8,306 bases of DNA from Promethearchaeota archaeon (GTDB lineage Archaea > Asgardarchaeota > Odinarchaeia > Odinarchaeales > JBHLKK01). Position 1 is the first letter of the stretch, and every line of letters starts with the position of its first letter. Made by a program: the position numbers and the translations under genes. The notes beneath the pieces are model-generated. The model was not told where the DNA came from and did not search any database. It saw only the letters and a program-made list of their open reading frames with translations. Shown here one piece after another: positions 1,100 to 8,306 of this stretch. Where the stretch lies: the NCBI GenBank assembly GCA_048939465.1, contig JBHLPL010000085.1, positions 1-8,306 on the forward strand. The letters are read 5' to 3'.

Positions 1100-1315
1100 T
1101 TGCATATCCAAGAATTATGGGTGAAGCATTTGATACTGTATCCTGCTCTAGGGAGTCTTTTTATTGTCATTGGCATTTTGGTCGCTCTGTGGCTTATTGT
1201 GCATATTGAAGTCGGGCGAGAGTTTTCATATAGGAAGACAATTGCATCAATAATTCTTCTTTCAATCCTTCTGGGCTTCGGTATACATTTTATTATGTTA
1301 GCCTTTGGTGGCTGA
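1100..1315 (+). CDS. Small two-TM membrane protein, OST5/TMEM258 (UPF0197)-like oligosaccharyltransferase subunit
   Basis: Two hydrophobic helices. YPALGSLFIVIGILVALWLIV and SILLGFGIHFIMLAFG match, without gaps in each block, the recalled human TMEM258 segments [21 protein letters not shown] and SLFMGFGVLFLLLWVG. The start is uncertain (TTG 1100 or GTG 1121). Confidence 0.75.
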   Translation: MHIQELWVKHLILYPALGSLFIVIGILVALWLIVHIEVGREFSYRKTIASIILLSILLGFGIHFIMLAFGG

Positions 1316-1424: not shown

Positions 1425-3032
1425 ATGCTAATGTTCAAGCGCAGAGATAAAGGAGAACAATCGCGGTTTCGGATAAGTCGAGAGCTGGCAAAGGAATTTG
1501 AGACAATATACGATTTCAAGGAAAAGGTAAGCAGAGTTCAATCAAGAGAAGCCGAGAAAATCTCAAACCACTTCAACACATCCATCCAAATAGCTAAGGC
1601 AATCTGCCAACTAGAGCGAGATGGAGTAAAAGGGGAAACGGCACATGAGTTGTTTCAGTGGGCGCAAATGATTAGAGAGGAAATGCGTGTGCCTGTTCCT
1701 CAAGTATCATCCTATCTTTTCAATTTTGCGGTGGGCGAAGGAGTATGGATAGAATACCTTTACATCAAGTTTCACTCTGTACTTGAAAAAGCACTGATGA
1801 GCCTTGCTAATCTCGAAAGAGCTTTCGAGAAGGAGGATACTATCCCAGCTGAGAAAATCGTAGGTATAATAGATGCACGTAGAGATGTTGTTGAAACCCT
1901 GATCGGTCCACTAATGGATAAATGGAAGAAGGAGCATGAAAATGCTCCAAGTATTTACGCAGCTCAGGCCATAGTCTCGGCAGCTCTGAAGACCCCTCCT
2001 GGGCGTGCCATCCATATTATGGAAAAAGCCAAGCTTGAGCTTCAGAAAGCACTATTTCATCTAGATAGTTCTTTGGAAAAAGAGAGCCTCCCGGAAGATG
2101 GAGTTCCGGTCAAAATCAGGGTCTTGAAACTTCGGATGCATCTATTAAGTCCTCTCTCAAAACTTGAAGATATGGCGTTGGCGGAAGTTGTTTTGAACGC
2201 GTGCCCGAGACCTGAGGCAATCTATGTCGAAGGAGAACATCCAAGTGTTTTAGTTCATTCGCCAGTGCTTCGAGGGGGGCTTGTGGGGCCTGAACTCAAA
2301 ACATCTTCGGACTTTCTTGAGCGTGACGTTTTCTTGGCAAGACGTCGCGATGAATCAGAACGTGACGCGTTTTTGTTGAATCGTGTCAAAAGAGCTCACA
2401 GAACGCTGGTTCTTCAAGGAAACAATCCAGTCTCTGCTGCTGCCAAGTTGATATCTGATATGTCACATCGTTTTAAGGCATCCCCCGTCGATGAAATAGA
2501 AGCAAAAAGAATGATTATCGAGAAAGCTGCCGGCGCGGAGAAGTTTGGTGAATTCATTAGGAAGATGAGGATTGCAAAATCGATCGATGAACCAAGAAAA
2601 TCGGTCATTTCAGAGACTACTTCTAGGATACCCAACGAGTCGTTATTGGAAGAAACTGAGCACACGGCGATGGTGCGTGGAGTGATTAGTGAAGAACCGG
2701 GAATCGAAGTCGAGGAAGAACTCGCTGAGGACCTCAATGAAGAAGCCGCGGAAGAACCCGCAGAAGGAGTCACAAACCTTGACGGCAAAACTGGAGAAGG
2801 AATGGAGGCGGCAACAAGCCGCGAAGAAACTGTGACTGAAGGACTACTGGAAGAATCTCCCAGAAACCTTGATGATAATGCTGTCAGGGAAGTTATGAGA
2901 GAGATTTCCGAAAAGGACATCGAAAAGCTGGGTCTGCCGGAAGAAGAAATAGTGAAGTCGCTTGCATCGTTGATAAAAGAGACCTTTGTGGAGAATAATG
3001 CAGACGAACTGGAGAACAAAACGGATGAATAA
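1425..3032 (+). CDS. Hypothetical protein: about 390-aa mostly helical region plus about 140-aa acidic low-complexity tail
   Basis: Long uninterrupted ORF with no recognisable catalytic motif. The last 140 aa contain 43 D/E by hand count. A GGGGT motif (1420-1424) suggests the in-frame ATG at 1431 as an alternative start. Confidence 0.85.
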   Translation: MLMFKRRDKGEQSRFRISRELAKEFETIYDFKEKVSRVQSREAEKISNHFNTSIQIAKAICQLERDGVKGETAHELFQWAQMIREEMRVPVPQVSSYLFNFAVGEGVWIEYLYIKFHSVLEKALMSLANLERAFEKEDTIPAEKIVGIIDARRDVVETLIGPLMDKWKKEHENAPSIYAAQAIVSAALKTPPGRAIHIMEKAKLELQKALFHLDSSLEKESLPEDGVPVKIRVLKLRMHLLSPLSKLEDMALAEVVLNACPRPEAIYVEGEHPSVLVHSPVLRGGLVGPELKTSSDFLERDVFLARRRDESERDAFLLNRVKRAHRTLVLQGNNPVSAAAKLISDMSHRFKASPVDEIEAKRMIIEKAAGAEKFGEFIRKMRIAKSIDEPRKSVISETTSRIPNESLLEETEHTAMVRGVISEEPGIEVEEELAEDLNEEAAEEPAEGVTNLDGKTGEGMEAATSREETVTEGLLEESPRNLDDNAVREVMREISEKDIEKLGLPEEEIVKSLASLIKETFVENNADELENKTDE

Positions 3033-3043
3033 AAGGTGATTTC

Positions 3044-3814
3044 ATGCCCGCTCTATATTGGCTTCTAGATGTCTACATGCCTGATTTTCAATTAGGCTAC
3101 GGAAACGTAGAGCTAAAGGGAAAGGTGTTAATAACCTCAAACCAACTCTGGTCTCTAATGGGAGAGAATACTGTAAGATCGTCTCTGATAGGACCTGGCT
3201 ATATCTTCGGTCAAGGAACGCTAAAAGGAAGCCCGGTCACGTTCGAGTCACCGATTGGAGCGCTTATAATGGACCCGACGGAGTTGAGACCTCATGCTCC
3301 TGTTCCCTTAATAGATATCATAACTCCTGAGGTAATTGACCCGTTGGAGACTAGTTCTCCGGAAACAATTAAGGAGAATATCATGAAGATCGTAATTAGA
3401 AAGGGACAGGTTCTCGGACCTGTAAAAGTTGCTGAAGTACACGAAATGACCAATATCCCAATGACGGCGTTTGAAGAAGATGTGACTAGAGAGTTGCACA
3501 TATCACACGTTTCAGGAATTGAAAGAGCGAAGTTCATTCTAGCTGGAAAGAACCGACGTTTGTTCGATCCCTTTGTGAGACTGATAAAGCGAGGTAAGTA
3601 TCAAAACCCCCACAACTTAAGAATCCTCCGAGTGGACAAAAAACGAATCGATGAATTTATGGACGCGGACAGGCTTGGAGAATGGGTAATCATCGAAAAA
3701 GCTCAAGAGCTGACTCCGGAGATAAGGAGCAATACTTTAGAAGAATTCAGGAAGGAATATGAGTTAGCATATAATGATATAAGGAAGAATTGGGCAGCAT
3801 ATATATATTACTAA
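3044..3814 (+). CDS. Hypothetical protein (256 aa), probably co-transcribed with its neighbours
   Basis: Strong SD-like AGGTGAT at 3034-3040 just before ATG 3044, and an 11-nt gap from the upstream stop. No confident family match. Confidence 0.85.
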   Translation: MPALYWLLDVYMPDFQLGYGNVELKGKVLITSNQLWSLMGENTVRSSLIGPGYIFGQGTLKGSPVTFESPIGALIMDPTELRPHAPVPLIDIITPEVIDPLETSSPETIKENIMKIVIRKGQVLGPVKVAEVHEMTNIPMTAFEEDVTRELHISHVSGIERAKFILAGKNRRLFDPFVRLIKRGKYQNPHNLRILRVDKKRIDEFMDADRLGEWVIIEKAQELTPEIRSNTLEEFRKEYELAYNDIRKNWAAYIYY

Positions 3815-3840: not shown

Positions 3841-4545
3841 ATGATCGGAAAAGTTGAGATTCATCCGGTGGCTCTGGCAAAGATTCTAGAGCATACTGCC
3901 TTCACGAATTTAGAGAGAGCCGGTCTTCTAATTGGCCGATTGAGGAATGAATCTCTTTTGATTACTGATGCGGCGATCACGAGGCAGAAAGGGACGGCAA
4001 CTCACGTGAAACTCAAGGATATAGACCAAGCATCACTAGCTGAATTCCTGCGGAAACAATCCACGGGCGAAATAGTATGTGGCTGGTATCACTCCCACCC
4101 GAAAATGGGTGCTGATTTCTTCTCTTCAATTGACAAAGATACACAGCGAAGATATCAAGAACTATTTCCGAATGCTGTAGGACTAGTCGTCGATCCTGCC
4201 AAATTTGCTGTGACTCGCAAATTCAAAGATGCAGACGTTCACGTTTATCGCGTAGAAAAGGGCAAGCTTAAAGAGCCCCCCTTCAAGCTGATATCCCGTC
4301 CCGAAGAGGTCGTGGAGAACACTGTAACAGTTATCCATAGGGAAAAGGCCGAGCTCACAGACATACTGGACAAGATTACAGAAAGACTTCGTGAATTATA
4401 TAGCAAGACGGGCTTTTTGCCGAAGGATTATGTCACCAAGAAAGATCTCAGAAAATTGAGTAGCGACTTGGTCGTAACAATGCTGGGGTGGACTTTTATT
4501 GTAATTATTCTCCTAATCATGGTAACCATACTTATGACTTTTTGA
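3841..4545 (+). CDS. JAMM/MPN+ (Rpn11/CSN5-like) zinc metalloprotease/isopeptidase with a C-terminal transmembrane anchor
   Basis: Catalytic Glu in NLERAGLLIG (E25); GWYHSHPKMGADFFSSID (H84, H86, S95, D98); Rpn11-like flanks QKGTATHV and AVGLVVDP; C-terminal 25-aa uncharged hydrophobic segment LVVTMLGWTFIVIILLIMVTILMTF. ATG 3841 is preferred over the overlapping TTG 3790 because the MPN beta-1/helix (KVEIHPVALAKILEH) starts immediately after it. Confidence 0.9.
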   Translation: MIGKVEIHPVALAKILEHTAFTNLERAGLLIGRLRNESLLITDAAITRQKGTATHVKLKDIDQASLAEFLRKQSTGEIVCGWYHSHPKMGADFFSSIDKDTQRRYQELFPNAVGLVVDPAKFAVTRKFKDADVHVYRVEKGKLKEPPFKLISRPEEVVENTVTVIHREKAELTDILDKITERLRELYSKTGFLPKDYVTKKDLRKLSSDLVVTMLGWTFIVIILLIMVTILMTF

Positions 4546-4684: not shown

Positions 4685-5773
4685 ATGCCTAAGGGTATAG
4701 TCGTTATTAGGTGGGATGATAAAGTAGGGGCTGTACTAGAAGCCAAACATCCATCAGGATTCGAAATTGATCAGGAGCATATAATGAGAATTTTCACGAC
4801 TCATGCCCTAGGTGCTGCAAATCCAGGTTTTATGAGTATGAGAATAGAAGACCTGAATGTTGCAAGCTACTATACAGGGATTATGTCTGCAGGTCAGAAT
4901 CAATACTGTATTTCGCTAATCCTTAAAGAGGGAGAGGATGCTGATTCTTTTGAAGAGTCGCTTTCTGAAGCGGCAAAAGGGATTCTAGAGCAATCAGGCC
5001 CGCAAGGGATGACGGACTTCATTTCTACGGTCTATGAAAGGTTTGCCAGAATAGCTGAAATAGAAGATGAACAACGATACGCAATGATATTTAGCGATCC
5101 TCTGCGTGTGCTAGTCCTGCAGAAATTCATTGAGGGTAGCATAACAAAATCTGAGCTGAAGGCATGGCTTGAAGAAAGAACTGGCAGAGAAATAGCAGAC
5201 CTAGATATTCTTCTTTCTCCATTTATGAAGACGGAACTGGTAAAATCAGCTTTTGTGGAAGGCATTCCTGACGAATGTCTTTTCCTCGTCAAGGATGTTT
5301 TCGCGACTCGTGCTCCTATGGCCGAGCTGCGCCGGTCAATCCAGGGAACGATCATTCCTGGGGAAATAGGAGAGCAACACTTGGAAGAAGTGGAAAAGTA
5401 TTTCAAGGAATATAGGTCTACTCCGGATGACACATCCCGCTTCTCAAAAGCCCTATCCAACCCTGACATTTACTTGATCATCAAAATGCTTCGAGAAGGA
5501 GTATATCACCTCGAAGAACTCGAAGCCAAACTGAACATCAACAACGAAGAGTCTTTTCACGATCTAATCGATCAACTCAAGGAACTTGACGTTATCAATG
5601 ACGTAAAGGATAGTGAAGGAAAGGACTGGCTAGTCCTCAAATCGGATTTGAAATACGCTACGTTCTTCCCTGAGTATTTGATAGATGTCATTAGAAAAAG
5701 ATGGAATGAGGGCACCCTGGAACAGAGACAGGCGGTAAAGCATCTGGAGCTACTTAAAGAGTCTTATTCGTAA
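4685..5773 (+). CDS. Longin (uDENN/NPR2-like) domain protein with two C-terminal winged-helix-like repeats
   Basis: The N-terminal pattern fits longin topology: beta-beta (GIVVIRWDDKVGAVLEAKHP), helix, beta-beta-beta (FMSMRI, NVASYYTG, YCISLIL), helix, helix. Two later similar units (SDPLRVLVLQKF...ELVK and SNPDIYLIIKML...LDVI) look like wHTH domains. SD-like AGGAG upstream and tandem TAA TAA stops. Confidence 0.7.
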   Translation: MPKGIVVIRWDDKVGAVLEAKHPSGFEIDQEHIMRIFTTHALGAANPGFMSMRIEDLNVASYYTGIMSAGQNQYCISLILKEGEDADSFEESLSEAAKGILEQSGPQGMTDFISTVYERFARIAEIEDEQRYAMIFSDPLRVLVLQKFIEGSITKSELKAWLEERTGREIADLDILLSPFMKTELVKSAFVEGIPDECLFLVKDVFATRAPMAELRRSIQGTIIPGEIGEQHLEEVEKYFKEYRSTPDDTSRFSKALSNPDIYLIIKMLREGVYHLEELEAKLNINNEESFHDLIDQLKELDVINDVKDSEGKDWLVLKSDLKYATFFPEYLIDVIRKRWNEGTLEQRQAVKHLELLKESYS

Positions 5774-5797
5774 TAACCCAGCTTGAGGCTGATTCAA

Positions 5798-6214
5798 ATG
5801 CAAATCGATGAAGATATGATAAATCAAATCATTTTGGAATACATTACCAAAATAAACTCGAACTGGCATAGCAATGTGTTCACAAGCGCGAGACTGGCCA
5901 GGATAGCTTTAGAAAGATTAGATGACAAAAGAACTAGATTTCCGACAGTCCACTCTGTAGTTAGGAAGACGCTTAAGAATCTGGCAGAAGAAGGATTATG
6001 CACGTATGTGACTACGACCAAGTTGGGACGTTGCAGAAAAACAAAAGACGTGTACAGGTTTAACTCCTCCGGAATTCGATTGGTTAAGCGGAGATTGATT
6101 GAGGAGAGTATAAAGGGCATAAACAGAGGGCAGGAATTCAGCTACGGCATACTCCGAACCAGAGAAAGAACAATAAAAGCCCTTATCGCGAGAATCACAA
6201 GACCTGCTTTTTGA
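5798..6214 (+). CDS. Basic winged-helix protein, putative DNA-binding regulator (PadR/MarR-like fold)
   Basis: 138 aa from ATG 5798 (the track uses TTG 5783). Three helices, then VRKTLKNLAEEGLC, a wing, and KDVYRFNSSGIRLV. Hand count gives 28 K/R versus 14 D/E. Confidence 0.6.
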   Translation: MQIDEDMINQIILEYITKINSNWHSNVFTSARLARIALERLDDKRTRFPTVHSVVRKTLKNLAEEGLCTYVTTTKLGRCRKTKDVYRFNSSGIRLVKRRLIEESIKGINRGQEFSYGILRTRERTIKALIARITRPAF

Positions 6215-6268: not shown

Positions 6269-8306
6269 TTGAGAAGAAGCTTCCAAAAACCAATACTTGT
6301 CGTATTCTTAATGCTGGCTGCAGTCTTTTCATTCCAACTACCGATTCTTCTTCCCGCAAAGGCAAATGGCTCTCCAACTGTGTATCATAACGGAGTAGAG
6401 ACATTTGAATGGGATCCGGCCCTTTATAGCGAATGGGATTACCGAATAAGGGTTAGTGTAACTGAACCAGATTCCGTCAACAGAACGAATGAGCCAGTCA
6501 ACGTGTACCTTGAGTTCCCTTCGGGTTTTGCCAGGGAAAAGAACATCCATGTGAAGTTTTATAACGGCACCTGGTATCCTGTGCCCTATCAGGTTTGGAA
6601 CACAACAGGAACGCCTTATTTAACCTCTTGTACGATTACGTTTCTCTCGAATATCACCAAAGGAAACACCGTTTATTACTATGTTTACTTTACAGGGAGT
6701 TCTTCTCCTACGGCGCCAGTATCTGATACATACGTTACCTATGATAACGATAGTGGCGTTATTACTGCTTTTAATTATCGGGCAACAATGAATCTAGATT
6801 ATGGATTTCTAGATGATTTCATAATAAACGACGAAGACCTGATTGGCTCGGTTTATAATTATTACGGCGGGTCTGTGGAAGCAGGGATTATTACAGACTG
6901 GAGACGTGACGAAATAGACGGAACAGAAGATACAGCAAGTTTGGATAATTCACGGTCAATATTCGGCCCCGACTGCCCCGTTTTTACCAGACTTGTCATA
7001 AACAAAACAACCGATTACCCGTCTGGCTACCCGTCCAAAGACGGATCAGATATCGACAGGGTATGGACATTCTATCCTAACTACTTCACACTTGAAGTTA
7101 GATATGATCGTAAATATGATTACCAAGCTACCTACGTCGTCTACGGCAGAAGCTTCCACAACGGAAGCTCGGGAAACCCCGTCTACTGGGCTACTGCAGT
7201 AGAAAATTACACAAGATACGGTACTGAATATGTTAGGTCTGCCACCATCGACGGTAGCGATTATGGTGACAATATGCAGTATTACGATATTTCTGGCTGG
7301 CAATGGTTCGGGGTATATAAGACTAACCATTATGCTTACTCGTGCGTTGCTACCCAGGACTCCGATATAAATGCGATATACTATTCTGATAGAAGCTCCT
7401 ATTACACAAGGCCCCCCAGGTATGGTGCAATGGGGTGGGCGTATTCCGTGTCATCTGGAGTCCTTCCTCATGACCTTGAAGCCAAACTCTTTTATTTCCC
7501 CCATGGACCCCAACCCAGTTATTCCGACTATGAGTTTGCTATGAGCGACCATGCAAGGGTGAATAACCCCGTTACTAGCACTAATGGATCCATTGAATAT
7601 CGAATCCTCAATCTCTTGGAAGTAGAAGCTCTCGACTATGATGGGAACTATATCTCGAATCTCAAAGTTCAACTATCTAATACGACACTTGAAAGAAATG
7701 AAACGACTGACGAAGGCATCGCAGAATTTGACGATCTCGAAAGCGGAGTCTACGACATGAGTTTCTGGTACAACATAGATGGCACTGAATATCAGGTATC
7801 CGCAAATTTCACAAGTCTGAACTTCAATCCGGGATATACAAGAAAGAGCATAAGCATCGCAAATTGCAGTCTCCGAACTCTTCATATGTATCTCCAAGAT
7901 GAAGACTATGGGTTGCCACTATACGATTACACCCTGAGGCTAAACTCCACAACGAATAGCATAGATATAAACGCCACAACCGACGAGAATGGAAATCATA
8001 ATTTCACTCTCTTGACTTATCAAAGCGATTTCTATAATATCAGTGTTTATGATCCCGATGATATTGAGCAGACTGCCAATGAGACAGGAGTTAATCTAAA
8101 CAGCTCGTCACTTGGGGTACCGCCAACCTTGGTACTGACCCTTATTCCCCCGCTAAATATAACAACATTGACCCATGCATATTCAAACAGCTCCATAGAT
8201 TACATCAGCACTATACAAACGGGGAGACTCATTACGCCAACCTACGCTGAGGTCTATTATGGGGACAATGTCACCTTCTCAATATCTTTCATAGATGTTA
8301 CATACG
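6269..8306 (+). CDS. Large secreted or cell-surface glycoprotein (S-layer/adhesin-like), 3'-truncated by the window end
   Basis: Translated by hand: the frame is open from TTG 6269 (GTGAG SD-like at 6259-6263) to the window end, 679 codons with no stop. Signal peptide MRRSFQKPILVVFLMLAAVFSFQLPILLPAKA|N; N-terminal WDYRIRVSVTEPDSVNRTNEPVNV...PVPYQV...YYYVYF domain; Tyr/Thr/Asn-rich beta content; about 23 N-x-S/T sequons. Confidence 0.9.
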   Translation, partial: MRRSFQKPILVVFLMLAAVFSFQLPILLPAKANGSPTVYHNGVETFEWDPALYSEWDYRIRVSVTEPDSVNRTNEPVNVYLEFPSGFAREKNIHVKFYNGTWYPVPYQVWNTTGTPYLTSCTITFLSNITKGNTVYYYVYFTGSSSPTAPVSDTYVTYDNDSGVITAFNYRATMNLDYGFLDDFIINDEDLIGSVYNYYGGSVEAGIITDWRRDEIDGTEDTASLDNSRSIFGPDCPVFTRLVINKTTDYPSGYPSKDGSDIDRVWTFYPNYFTLEVRYDRKYDYQATYVVYGRSFHNGSSGNPVYWATAVENYTRYGTEYVRSATIDGSDYGDNMQYYDISGWQWFGVYKTNHYAYSCVATQDSDINAIYYSDRSSYYTRPPRYGAMGWAYSVSSGVLPHDLEAKLFYFPHGPQPSYSDYEFAMSDHARVNNPVTSTNGSIEYRILNLLEVEALDYDGNYISNLKVQLSNTTLERNETTDEGIAEFDDLESGVYDMSFWYNIDGTEYQVSANFTSLNFNPGYTRKSISIANCSLRTLHMYLQDEDYGLPLYDYTLRLNSTTNSIDINATTDENGNHNFTLLTYQSDFYNISVYDPDDIEQTANETGVNLNSSSLGVPPTLVLTLIPPLNITTLTHAYSNSSIDYISTIQTGRLITPTYAEVYYGDNVTFSISFIDVTY
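7613..8150 (+). repeat. Two degenerate protein-level beta-sandwich repeats (carboxypeptidase-regulatory/prealbumin-like) within the surface protein
   Basis: Unit 1: LEVEALDYDGNYISNLKVQL...NETTDEGIAEF...GVYDMSF. Unit 2: LHMYLQDEDYGLPLYDYTLRL...NATTDENGNHNF...FYNISV. Both share D-x1-2-G and TTDE(N)G motifs. Boundaries are approximate. Confidence 0.55.

Follow-up and report, generated by a model that had tools for sequence, protein, structure and literature searches.

A conserved tail-anchored variant of the archaeal Rpn11-like JAMM proteins, a predicted deubiquitinase, in Asgard archaea

The sequence studied here is the whole contig JBHLPL010000085.1 (8306 bp; contig C7, below called the window) from the genome bin of a Promethearchaeota archaeon (GCA_048939465.1), which consists of 152 contigs with 1.96 Mb and is 91 % complete. 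A gene at 3841–4545 encodes a protein with a JAMM domain, hereafter the JAMM protein, that carries a hydrophobic segment at its very C-terminus. It belongs to a conserved and widespread tail-anchored variant of the archaeal Rpn11-like proteins, for which homology predicts the function of a deubiquitinase. A preliminary description, made from the letters of the window, had treated the tailed protein as a single odd case; instead, a large and conserved Asgard family was found, and the variant is real and more general than described there. With moderate confidence we regard the JAMM protein as a zinc-dependent isopeptidase of the type of CsRpn11, the Rpn11 homologue of Caldiarchaeum subterraneum, tail-anchored in the cytoplasmic membrane and serving a eukaryote-like ubiquitin system. 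The gene and its parts are:

3841..4545, + strand: JAMM gene, complete, 234 amino acids (aa) plus stop codon (Pfam JAB 61.4 bits; CsRpn11 E 2e-28)
3841..4260, + strand: MPN+ catalytic core, residues 1–140 (alignment to CsRpn11)
3913–3915, 4090–4092, 4096–4098, 4123–4125 and 4132–4134: codons of the JAMM ligands E25, H84, H86, S95 and D98
4261..4467, + strand: charged linker, residues 141–209 (Kyte-Doolittle −1.2 to 0.25; basic KKDLRK at its end)
4468..4542, + strand: predicted C-terminal tail anchor, residues 210–234 (25 uncharged residues, none after; Kyte-Doolittle maximum 2.84)

The open reading frame (ORF) is translated without a stop, and its N-terminal part matches the Pfam family JAB (PF01398) at residues 4–111 with E 9.3e-17 and 61.4 bits (cut-off 22.5), and Prok-JAB (PF14464) with 32.4 bits (cut-off 25). 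Among all solved structures the top match is CsRpn11 (6fjv/6fju), aligned without gaps over residues 3–140, followed by yeast and human Rpn11 (about 6e-16), AMSH/Sst2 (2e-12), CSN5 (5e-12) and BRCC36 (1e-6). With yeast Rpn11 the protein can be aligned as far as residue 123, and relative to CsRpn11 it has no insert. The full set of metal-binding and catalytic residues noticed in the preliminary description, E25, H84, H86, S95 and D98, is invariant in an alignment of the JAMM protein with 24 relatives of 24–90 % identity. The Rpn11-like flanking segments pointed out there, QKGTATHV in the region of insert 1 (Ins-1), EIVCGWYHSHP and AVGLVVDP, likewise line up with yeast Rpn11 and CsRpn11. An Ins-1-like segment is located at about residues 44–58, and an Ins-2 insert is missing. 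By domain and motif the protein is an MPN+/JAMM metalloprotease, and as such it would be expected to bind zinc and to act as an isopeptidase.

Two other assignments were considered for this ORF and rejected. The match to UPF0172 (EMC8/9 family) stayed below the cut-off (21.6 against 24.4 bits) and was taken as general likeness of the MPN fold. A TTG start at 3790 would overlap the end of the upstream gene u256 (described below) and the homologues begin at the ATG position, so that the start is correctly placed at ATG 3841.

The best 19-residue Kyte-Doolittle window of the protein covers residues 210–228 and reaches 2.84, well above the usual threshold of 1.6 for a transmembrane (TM) segment. 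The uncharged run comprises exactly residues 210–234 and no residue follows it; directly before it lies KKDLRKLSSD, and the net charge is +2 over the 15 upstream residues. No window within the N-terminal 200 residues exceeds 0.73, and therefore a signal-peptide-like segment is missing. This is the layout of a tail-anchored protein, which has one TM segment at its very C-terminus and neither an N-terminal signal nor any other TM segment. The preliminary description, which had read the sequence as a charged linker followed by a hydrophobic C-terminus of 25 aa without a signal peptide, is borne out here. It had named two findings that would speak against the anchor, the lack of a TM signal at residues 210–234 and the lack of the tail in all homologues; the hydropathy signal is strong, and the tail is found in most homologues. 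The linker is conserved in close homologues, and its length varies across the family, the distance between the HxH motif and the TM segment having a median of 135 residues.

Four homologues from other samples (82–94 % identity) possess nearly the same tail. Metagenome contigs from four public runs, belonging to three or four studies and including mangrove and sediment samples, cover the ORF, within which they deviate by nothing but substitutions; a single indel was seen, in the spacer downstream. No RNA data set is listed among the public runs that contain the sequence. An exhaustive search among 1.84 billion cluster representatives returned 1243 relatives of the JAMM protein, and a large share of the best 150 of these carries a hydrophobic C-terminal segment. 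The uncharged run of 40 tail-anchored relatives is 24.5 aa long in the median, and the median number of residues behind it is 0. Sequence conservation is lacking among these tails, and hydrophobicity and terminal position are kept; this is the pattern of a membrane anchor and not of a read-through. A tree of the MPN domains, a quick tree with weakly supported deep branches whose 129 rows are mostly representatives of clusters at 50 % identity, contains 45 tail-anchored rows. Its archaeal Rpn11-like half, in which both CsRpn11 and the JAMM protein itself are placed, accounts for 41 tail-anchored rows out of 71, and the eukaryotic Rpn11/CSN5-like rows are placed in the other half. Of the 29 best matches beyond the window that a scan of 400 Asgard genomes gave, 26 end in a tail anchor. 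A tethered Rpn11-like form is thus widespread in Asgard archaea, with examples in metagenome-assembled genomes (MAGs) of Odin-, Baldr-, Jord- and Heimdallarchaeia, whereas the CsRpn11-type proteins of Aigarchaeota and Nitrososphaerota and the short Loki/Sif-type proteins of 140 aa have no TM segment. Public annotations of these proteins are generic and read "Mov34/MPN/PAD-1 family" or "proteasome subunit N11". A further tail-anchored JAMM protein of 244 aa (44 % identity to that of the window) is encoded on contig DATKTP010000241.1 (locus L011), which was binned as "Candidatus Deferrimicrobium sp."; as its closest relatives sit in Asgard genomes (families f17–f18), this contig is probably mis-binned.

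The closest characterised relative, CsRpn11 (PDB 6FJV, 6FJU, 6FNN, 6FNO; Hennell James et al. 2017; Fuchs et al. 2018), is active without a partner, cleaves pro-ubiquitin and deconjugates isopeptide-linked ubiquitin (PMC5654768, PMC6043591). Both proteins have the E/HxH/S/D site and the Ins-1 segment, both lack Ins-2 and an N-terminal lid helix, and both are encoded in genomes with an operon for ubiquitin, activating enzyme (E1), conjugating enzyme (E2) and RING protein, in which the ubiquitin precursor has a C-terminal extension. However, CsRpn11 and its relatives in Aigarchaeota and Nitrososphaerota lack the TM segment found in the JAMM protein, and the CsRpn11 gene adjoins the ubiquitin operon whereas the JAMM gene does not. 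On sequence grounds the JAMM protein belongs to the CsRpn11 group and deviates from it in operon position and, by prediction, in solubility.

[quoted passage not shown] A ubiquitin–RING–E2–E1 operon is located on contig C138 and flanked by genes for a Yip1-domain protein, a RING–Arf-like GTPase and a protein of the histone deacetylase family. An ArsA/Get3-family ATPase gene (291 bits) lies 3 kb from the operon. Further on, at 12–15 kb, follows an ESCRT-I/II block with a UEV/E2-like gene, Vps28 and EAP30, and the genome also holds a second EAP30-like gene. The ubiquitin ORF ends with TEGGDP, and therefore both residues after the Gly-Gly must be removed to expose it. The JAMM gene is the only PF01398 match in the genome at its 91 % completeness, and no MPN− partner (Rpn8/CSN6-like) was found there.

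The region at 54–87 kb of contig C138 (loci L009 and L010) can be described as a ubiquitin/ESCRT supercluster. Along with ubiquitin, E1 and E2 it contains genes for the ArsA/Get3-family ATPase, a protein of the histone deacetylase family, a zinc-ribbon–Yip1 protein, a small RING protein, a fusion of RING and Arf-like GTPase and a HerA-like ATPase, and further along EAP30, Vps28, UEV/E2-like, a VTT-domain protein, a fusion of longin and Arf-like GTPase, and the two Snf7 genes.

A functional connection to ubiquitin is also suggested by the phyletic pattern. Searches with the JAMM protein (E<=1e-10), with an E2 model and with u256 were compared across the same set of 400 Asgard genomes. Matches to the JAMM protein and to E2 are both present in the genome families f1, f2, f4–f6 and f8–f23, and both are absent or nearly so in f3, f24–f27 and f30; in f31–f33 each was found in 3 of 89 genomes. 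The neighbour u256, which occurs in 125 of the 400 genomes, is distributed differently: it is absent from f8–f13, f15 and f17–f27, including f22 with its 135 genomes, and present in 83 of the 89 genomes of f31–f33. The distribution of the Rpn11-like family thus matches that of the ubiquitin system rather than that of its neighbours on the chromosome.

Taken as a CsRpn11-type enzyme, the JAMM protein would be made in the cytoplasm, and its hydrophobic C-terminus would be captured and inserted post-translationally. A Get3-family ATPase would be available for this step; its presence is weak support because the ArsA/Get3 family is universal (matched in 14 of 14 control genomes). A charged linker of some 70 residues would then hold the MPN+ domain on the inner side of the membrane. 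By analogy with CsRpn11, it may cleave the ubiquitin precursor after the Gly-Gly, trimming the two residues, and may hydrolyse isopeptide bonds of ubiquitin conjugates within its reach, confined to the membrane surface. Its substrates would most plausibly be membrane proteins or membrane-bound complexes, which, as a conjecture, would tie the enzyme functionally to the ESCRT genes. As regards the cytoplasm-facing Rpn11-like isopeptidase at the membrane that the preliminary description had proposed, the architecture of domain, motif and tail stands, and the activity remains a prediction from the homology to CsRpn11. The editing of modified membrane proteins in a proto-ESCRT or ERAD-like manner, also suggested there, would be a conjectural role.

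Several points weigh against this assignment. The co-occurrence with E2 covers the whole Rpn11-like family including its soluble members, and genomes that are related do not count as independent samples. The TM assignment, and with it the predicted topology, was made from hydropathy and conservation, not by a dedicated predictor of topology. There is a second JAB-type gene, a Prok-JAB ORF truncated where contig C59 ends, and besides it one JAB-type match below the threshold. The JAMM gene sits on contig C7 behind conserved genes of no assigned function, outside the ubiquitin/ESCRT cluster, which is on contig C138; in so fragmented an assembly the two contigs do not fix how far apart the genes truly are. 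Furthermore, the genome encodes, outside the ubiquitin operon, small proteins of the ThiS/MoaD type (four) and additional E1-like enzymes (two), so that a substrate of the small archaeal modifier type is conceivable.

A broader proposal can be put forward only tentatively: in most Asgard archaea other than the Loki group, the Rpn11-like deubiquitinase could normally be tethered to the membrane, and the enzyme could provide the ubiquitin-recycling step of an archaeal ubiquitin–ESCRT sorting, be a functional forerunner of the AMSH-type deubiquitination at membranes, and represent a first class of integral-membrane JAMM deubiquitinases.

As an alternative, the JAMM protein might be a dedicated subunit of a membrane module together with the products of the three genes upstream of it, and might act on the substrates of this module, e.g. 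modified secretory or membrane proteins. We consider this unlikely as a full explanation. All long ORFs of the window are on the + strand; besides the JAMM gene they are:

35–994, + strand: gene for transcription factor B (TFB)
1100..1315, + strand: Ost5-like gene for a small two-helix membrane protein, 71 aa, first of the trio (PF05251, E 1e-5, 26.1 bits, below the cut-off of 27.4)
1425..3032, + strand: u535 gene, 535 aa, family unknown (ORF list)
3044..3814, + strand: u256 gene, 256 aa, family unknown (ORF list; its stop lies 26 bp before the JAMM start)
4685–5773, + strand: gene for a protein of 362 aa, no known family
5783–6214, + strand: gene for a protein of 143 aa, no known family
6269–8305, + strand: gene for an Ig-like secreted protein, more than 679 aa, open at the contig end

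The arrangement of the genes speaks for a module. The four co-oriented genes end with gaps of 12 bp (u535–u256) and 26 bp (u256–JAMM), the latter without an obvious promoter, and the JAMM stop is followed by an AT-rich spacer of 139 bp with a TATA-like run; the JAMM gene is likely co-transcribed with u256, as judged from this spacing. The order Ost5-like, u535, u256 is strictly conserved wherever u256 occurs, and five genome families have a JAMM gene on the same strand as u256, no more than 3 kb downstream of it. The distance is 30–140 bp in f1, f2 and f16 (the window's own, the Odin-like and the Jord-like families), about 1.5 kb in f6 (Baldr-like) and about 2.7 kb in f14; named examples of the linkage come from MAGs of Odin-, Baldr- and Jordarchaeia.

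The distribution of the parts argues against it. In 83 of the 89 genomes of f31–f33 the trio occurs without any such JAMM gene. Conversely, tail-anchored JAMM genes are found elsewhere without the trio, next to T2SSE, HEAT and tRNA-synthetase genes; among the other tail-anchored loci (Heimdall-type, a second Jord paralogue and others) no shared neighbours or ubiquitin genes were found. The first approximately 390 residues of u535 form a conserved all-helical domain followed by a lineage-specific acidic C-terminal tail, and neither u535 nor u256 has a match in Pfam, NCBIfam or the PDB sequences. Their AF2 models (predicted local distance difference test, pLDDT, of 80.7 for u535 and 68 for u256) retrieved nothing from the PDB by Foldseek at E<=1e-3 and, from the AlphaFold DB clusters, unnamed entries only, which are probably their own orthologues. 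A wide VIA-align search with u256 gave Sm-like barrels with a best Z of 3.1, too weak to be used, and a protein atlas search with both proteins gave no usable lead. As a recognisable family or fold is missing in both, no function can be assigned to them. The possibility that u256 is a hidden MPN− partner was rejected, since the profile–profile comparison by hhalign gave a probability of 1 %. A complex prediction for u535, u256 and residues 1–205 of the JAMM protein scored 0.00, below the mark of 0.32, which is evidence neither way. Since u535 and u256 have no match, u256 is not MPN-like and the complex score carries no verdict, the module is kept as a rival of, or an addition to, the CsRpn11-type assignment.

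Some further observations concern the surroundings of the trio. A large group of genomes has the trio and lacks both E2 and the JAMM gene. The order of the downstream genes for the proteins of 362 and 143 aa, which have no Pfam or NCBIfam match, is kept in Odin-like genomes (48–51 % and 37 % identity), and in a genome of the same genus they show 80 % and 79 % identity; family f4 has the 362-aa gene immediately behind u256 and no JAMM gene at this place. The ORF at 6269–8305 has a hydrophobic N-terminal segment and weak Ig-like/CarboxypepD_reg matches, and an Odinarchaeota locus (L016) contains a counterpart of 34 % identity at the equivalent relative position.

Even less probable is a role as a desampylase, which would remove ThiS/MoaD-type modifiers (small archaeal modifier proteins, SAMPs, or Urm1-like proteins) and not eukaryote-type ubiquitin. 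JAMM enzymes of archaea, HvJAMM1 for example, have SAMPs as substrates, and the genome does have the four ThiS-family and two E1-like genes outside the ubiquitin operon mentioned above. However, the NCBIfam desampylase model NF041370 scores 18.5 bits, so far below its cut-off of 130 that the protein is not a JAMM1 desampylase. Also, the JAB score exceeds that of Prok-JAB (61 against 32 bits), the nearest characterised relative, CsRpn11, acts on eukaryote-type ubiquitin, and the family tracks E2, which to our knowledge SAMP systems lack.

That the C-terminus is something other than an anchor, either an artefact of assembly or read-through or, in a soluble protein, a helix that is buried or serves oligomerisation, is hardly credible and largely refuted by the recurrence of the architecture (45/129 tree rows, 26/29 best genome matches), by the lack of indels in independent assemblies and by the hydropathy, which reaches 2.84 across 19 residues, the whole run of 25 being free of charge.

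Among eukaryotic JAMM enzymes, Rpn11/PSMD14 and CSN5 have the MPN+ fold and the catalytic motif in common with the JAMM protein, but the latter is predicted to be membrane-anchored and has neither Ins-2 nor the C-terminal helices for lid assembly nor an MPN− partner; because Ins-2, lid helices and an MPN− paralogue are missing, it is not an Rpn11 of the proteasome lid. AMSH/STAMBP and Sst2 are likewise JAMM proteins, and like them the JAMM protein would act at a membrane amid ubiquitin and ESCRT-I/II/III genes. AMSH is soluble, is recruited by its MIT domain and by STAM binding, and has a zinc-binding Ins-2. In the JAMM protein no MIT domain was detected by Pfam and Ins-2 is lacking, so that it is not an AMSH, and its predicted anchor is integral. 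Among the deubiquitinases of eukaryotes, USP19 (tail anchor in the endoplasmic reticulum) and USP30 (in the outer membrane of mitochondria) are membrane-anchored; both are USP-family cysteine proteases. The logic would be the same, with a single terminal TM segment confining a deubiquitinase to a membrane surface, and the fold is unrelated. We know of no eukaryotic JAMM deubiquitinase with a TM helix of its own. In the papers on Asgard archaea that were searched, the deubiquitinase appears as a generic JAB/MPN gene with no membrane anchor mentioned (PMC9192718, PMC10936438, preprint 10.1101/2023.07.25.550441), and no description of a tail-anchored or transmembrane JAMM/MPN protein of Asgard archaea was found in the full-text literature searched, which extended neither to supplements nor to subscription journals.

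Of the known relatives of eukaryotes, Asgard archaea are the closest, and they possess ubiquitin and ESCRT genes. If the main Rpn11-like enzyme of many Asgard lineages is indeed integral and tail-anchored, both the maturation and the removal of ubiquitin would take place at the membrane. This would offer a simple model of ubiquitin-dependent membrane sorting that predates soluble, adaptor-recruited deubiquitinases. The enzyme is compact, with a soluble domain of about 205 aa, and could be used in biochemistry together with the organism's own ubiquitin, E1, E2 and RING proteins.

The lineage labels attached to the genome are in conflict. The closest JAMM homologue with a name, of 83 % identity, is labelled Hodarchaeota at NCBI, and the genome's ubiquitin cluster, which includes Yip1 and a small GTPase, agrees with the description of Hodarchaeia (preprint 10.1101/2023.07.25.550441). 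On the other hand, the bin was grouped in one order with genomes of 1.3–1.4 Mb whose gene order matches an Odinarchaeota MAG.

A second architecture of membrane JAMM proteins was also observed. It consists of an N-terminal MPN+ domain, one TM segment at about residues 180–215 and a C-terminal domain of 200–400 aa, which is presumably extracellular. These proteins form a separate, well-supported clade which includes a Thermoplasmata MAG, and some of them are annotated as "COP9 signalosome subunit 5". The members are:

P0089, P0108, P0120, P0124, P0132, P0145, P0146, P0162 and P0166; locus L059:5992–7275

The soluble CsRpn11-type proteins of Aigarchaeota and Nitrososphaerota possess an acidic linker followed by a short basic amphipathic segment at the C-terminal end. 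The hydrophobic moment of this segment ranks first or second within the protein in 14 of 18 sequences; in the crystal structure it is unresolved. The sequences with the basic segment are:

L015, L017–L019, L023–L030, L032, L034 and L035; P0006, P0040, P0041 and P0052

The segment could be a helix that binds peripherally to the membrane or to a partner, and in the former case it might be the peripheral membrane-binding counterpart of the tail anchor.

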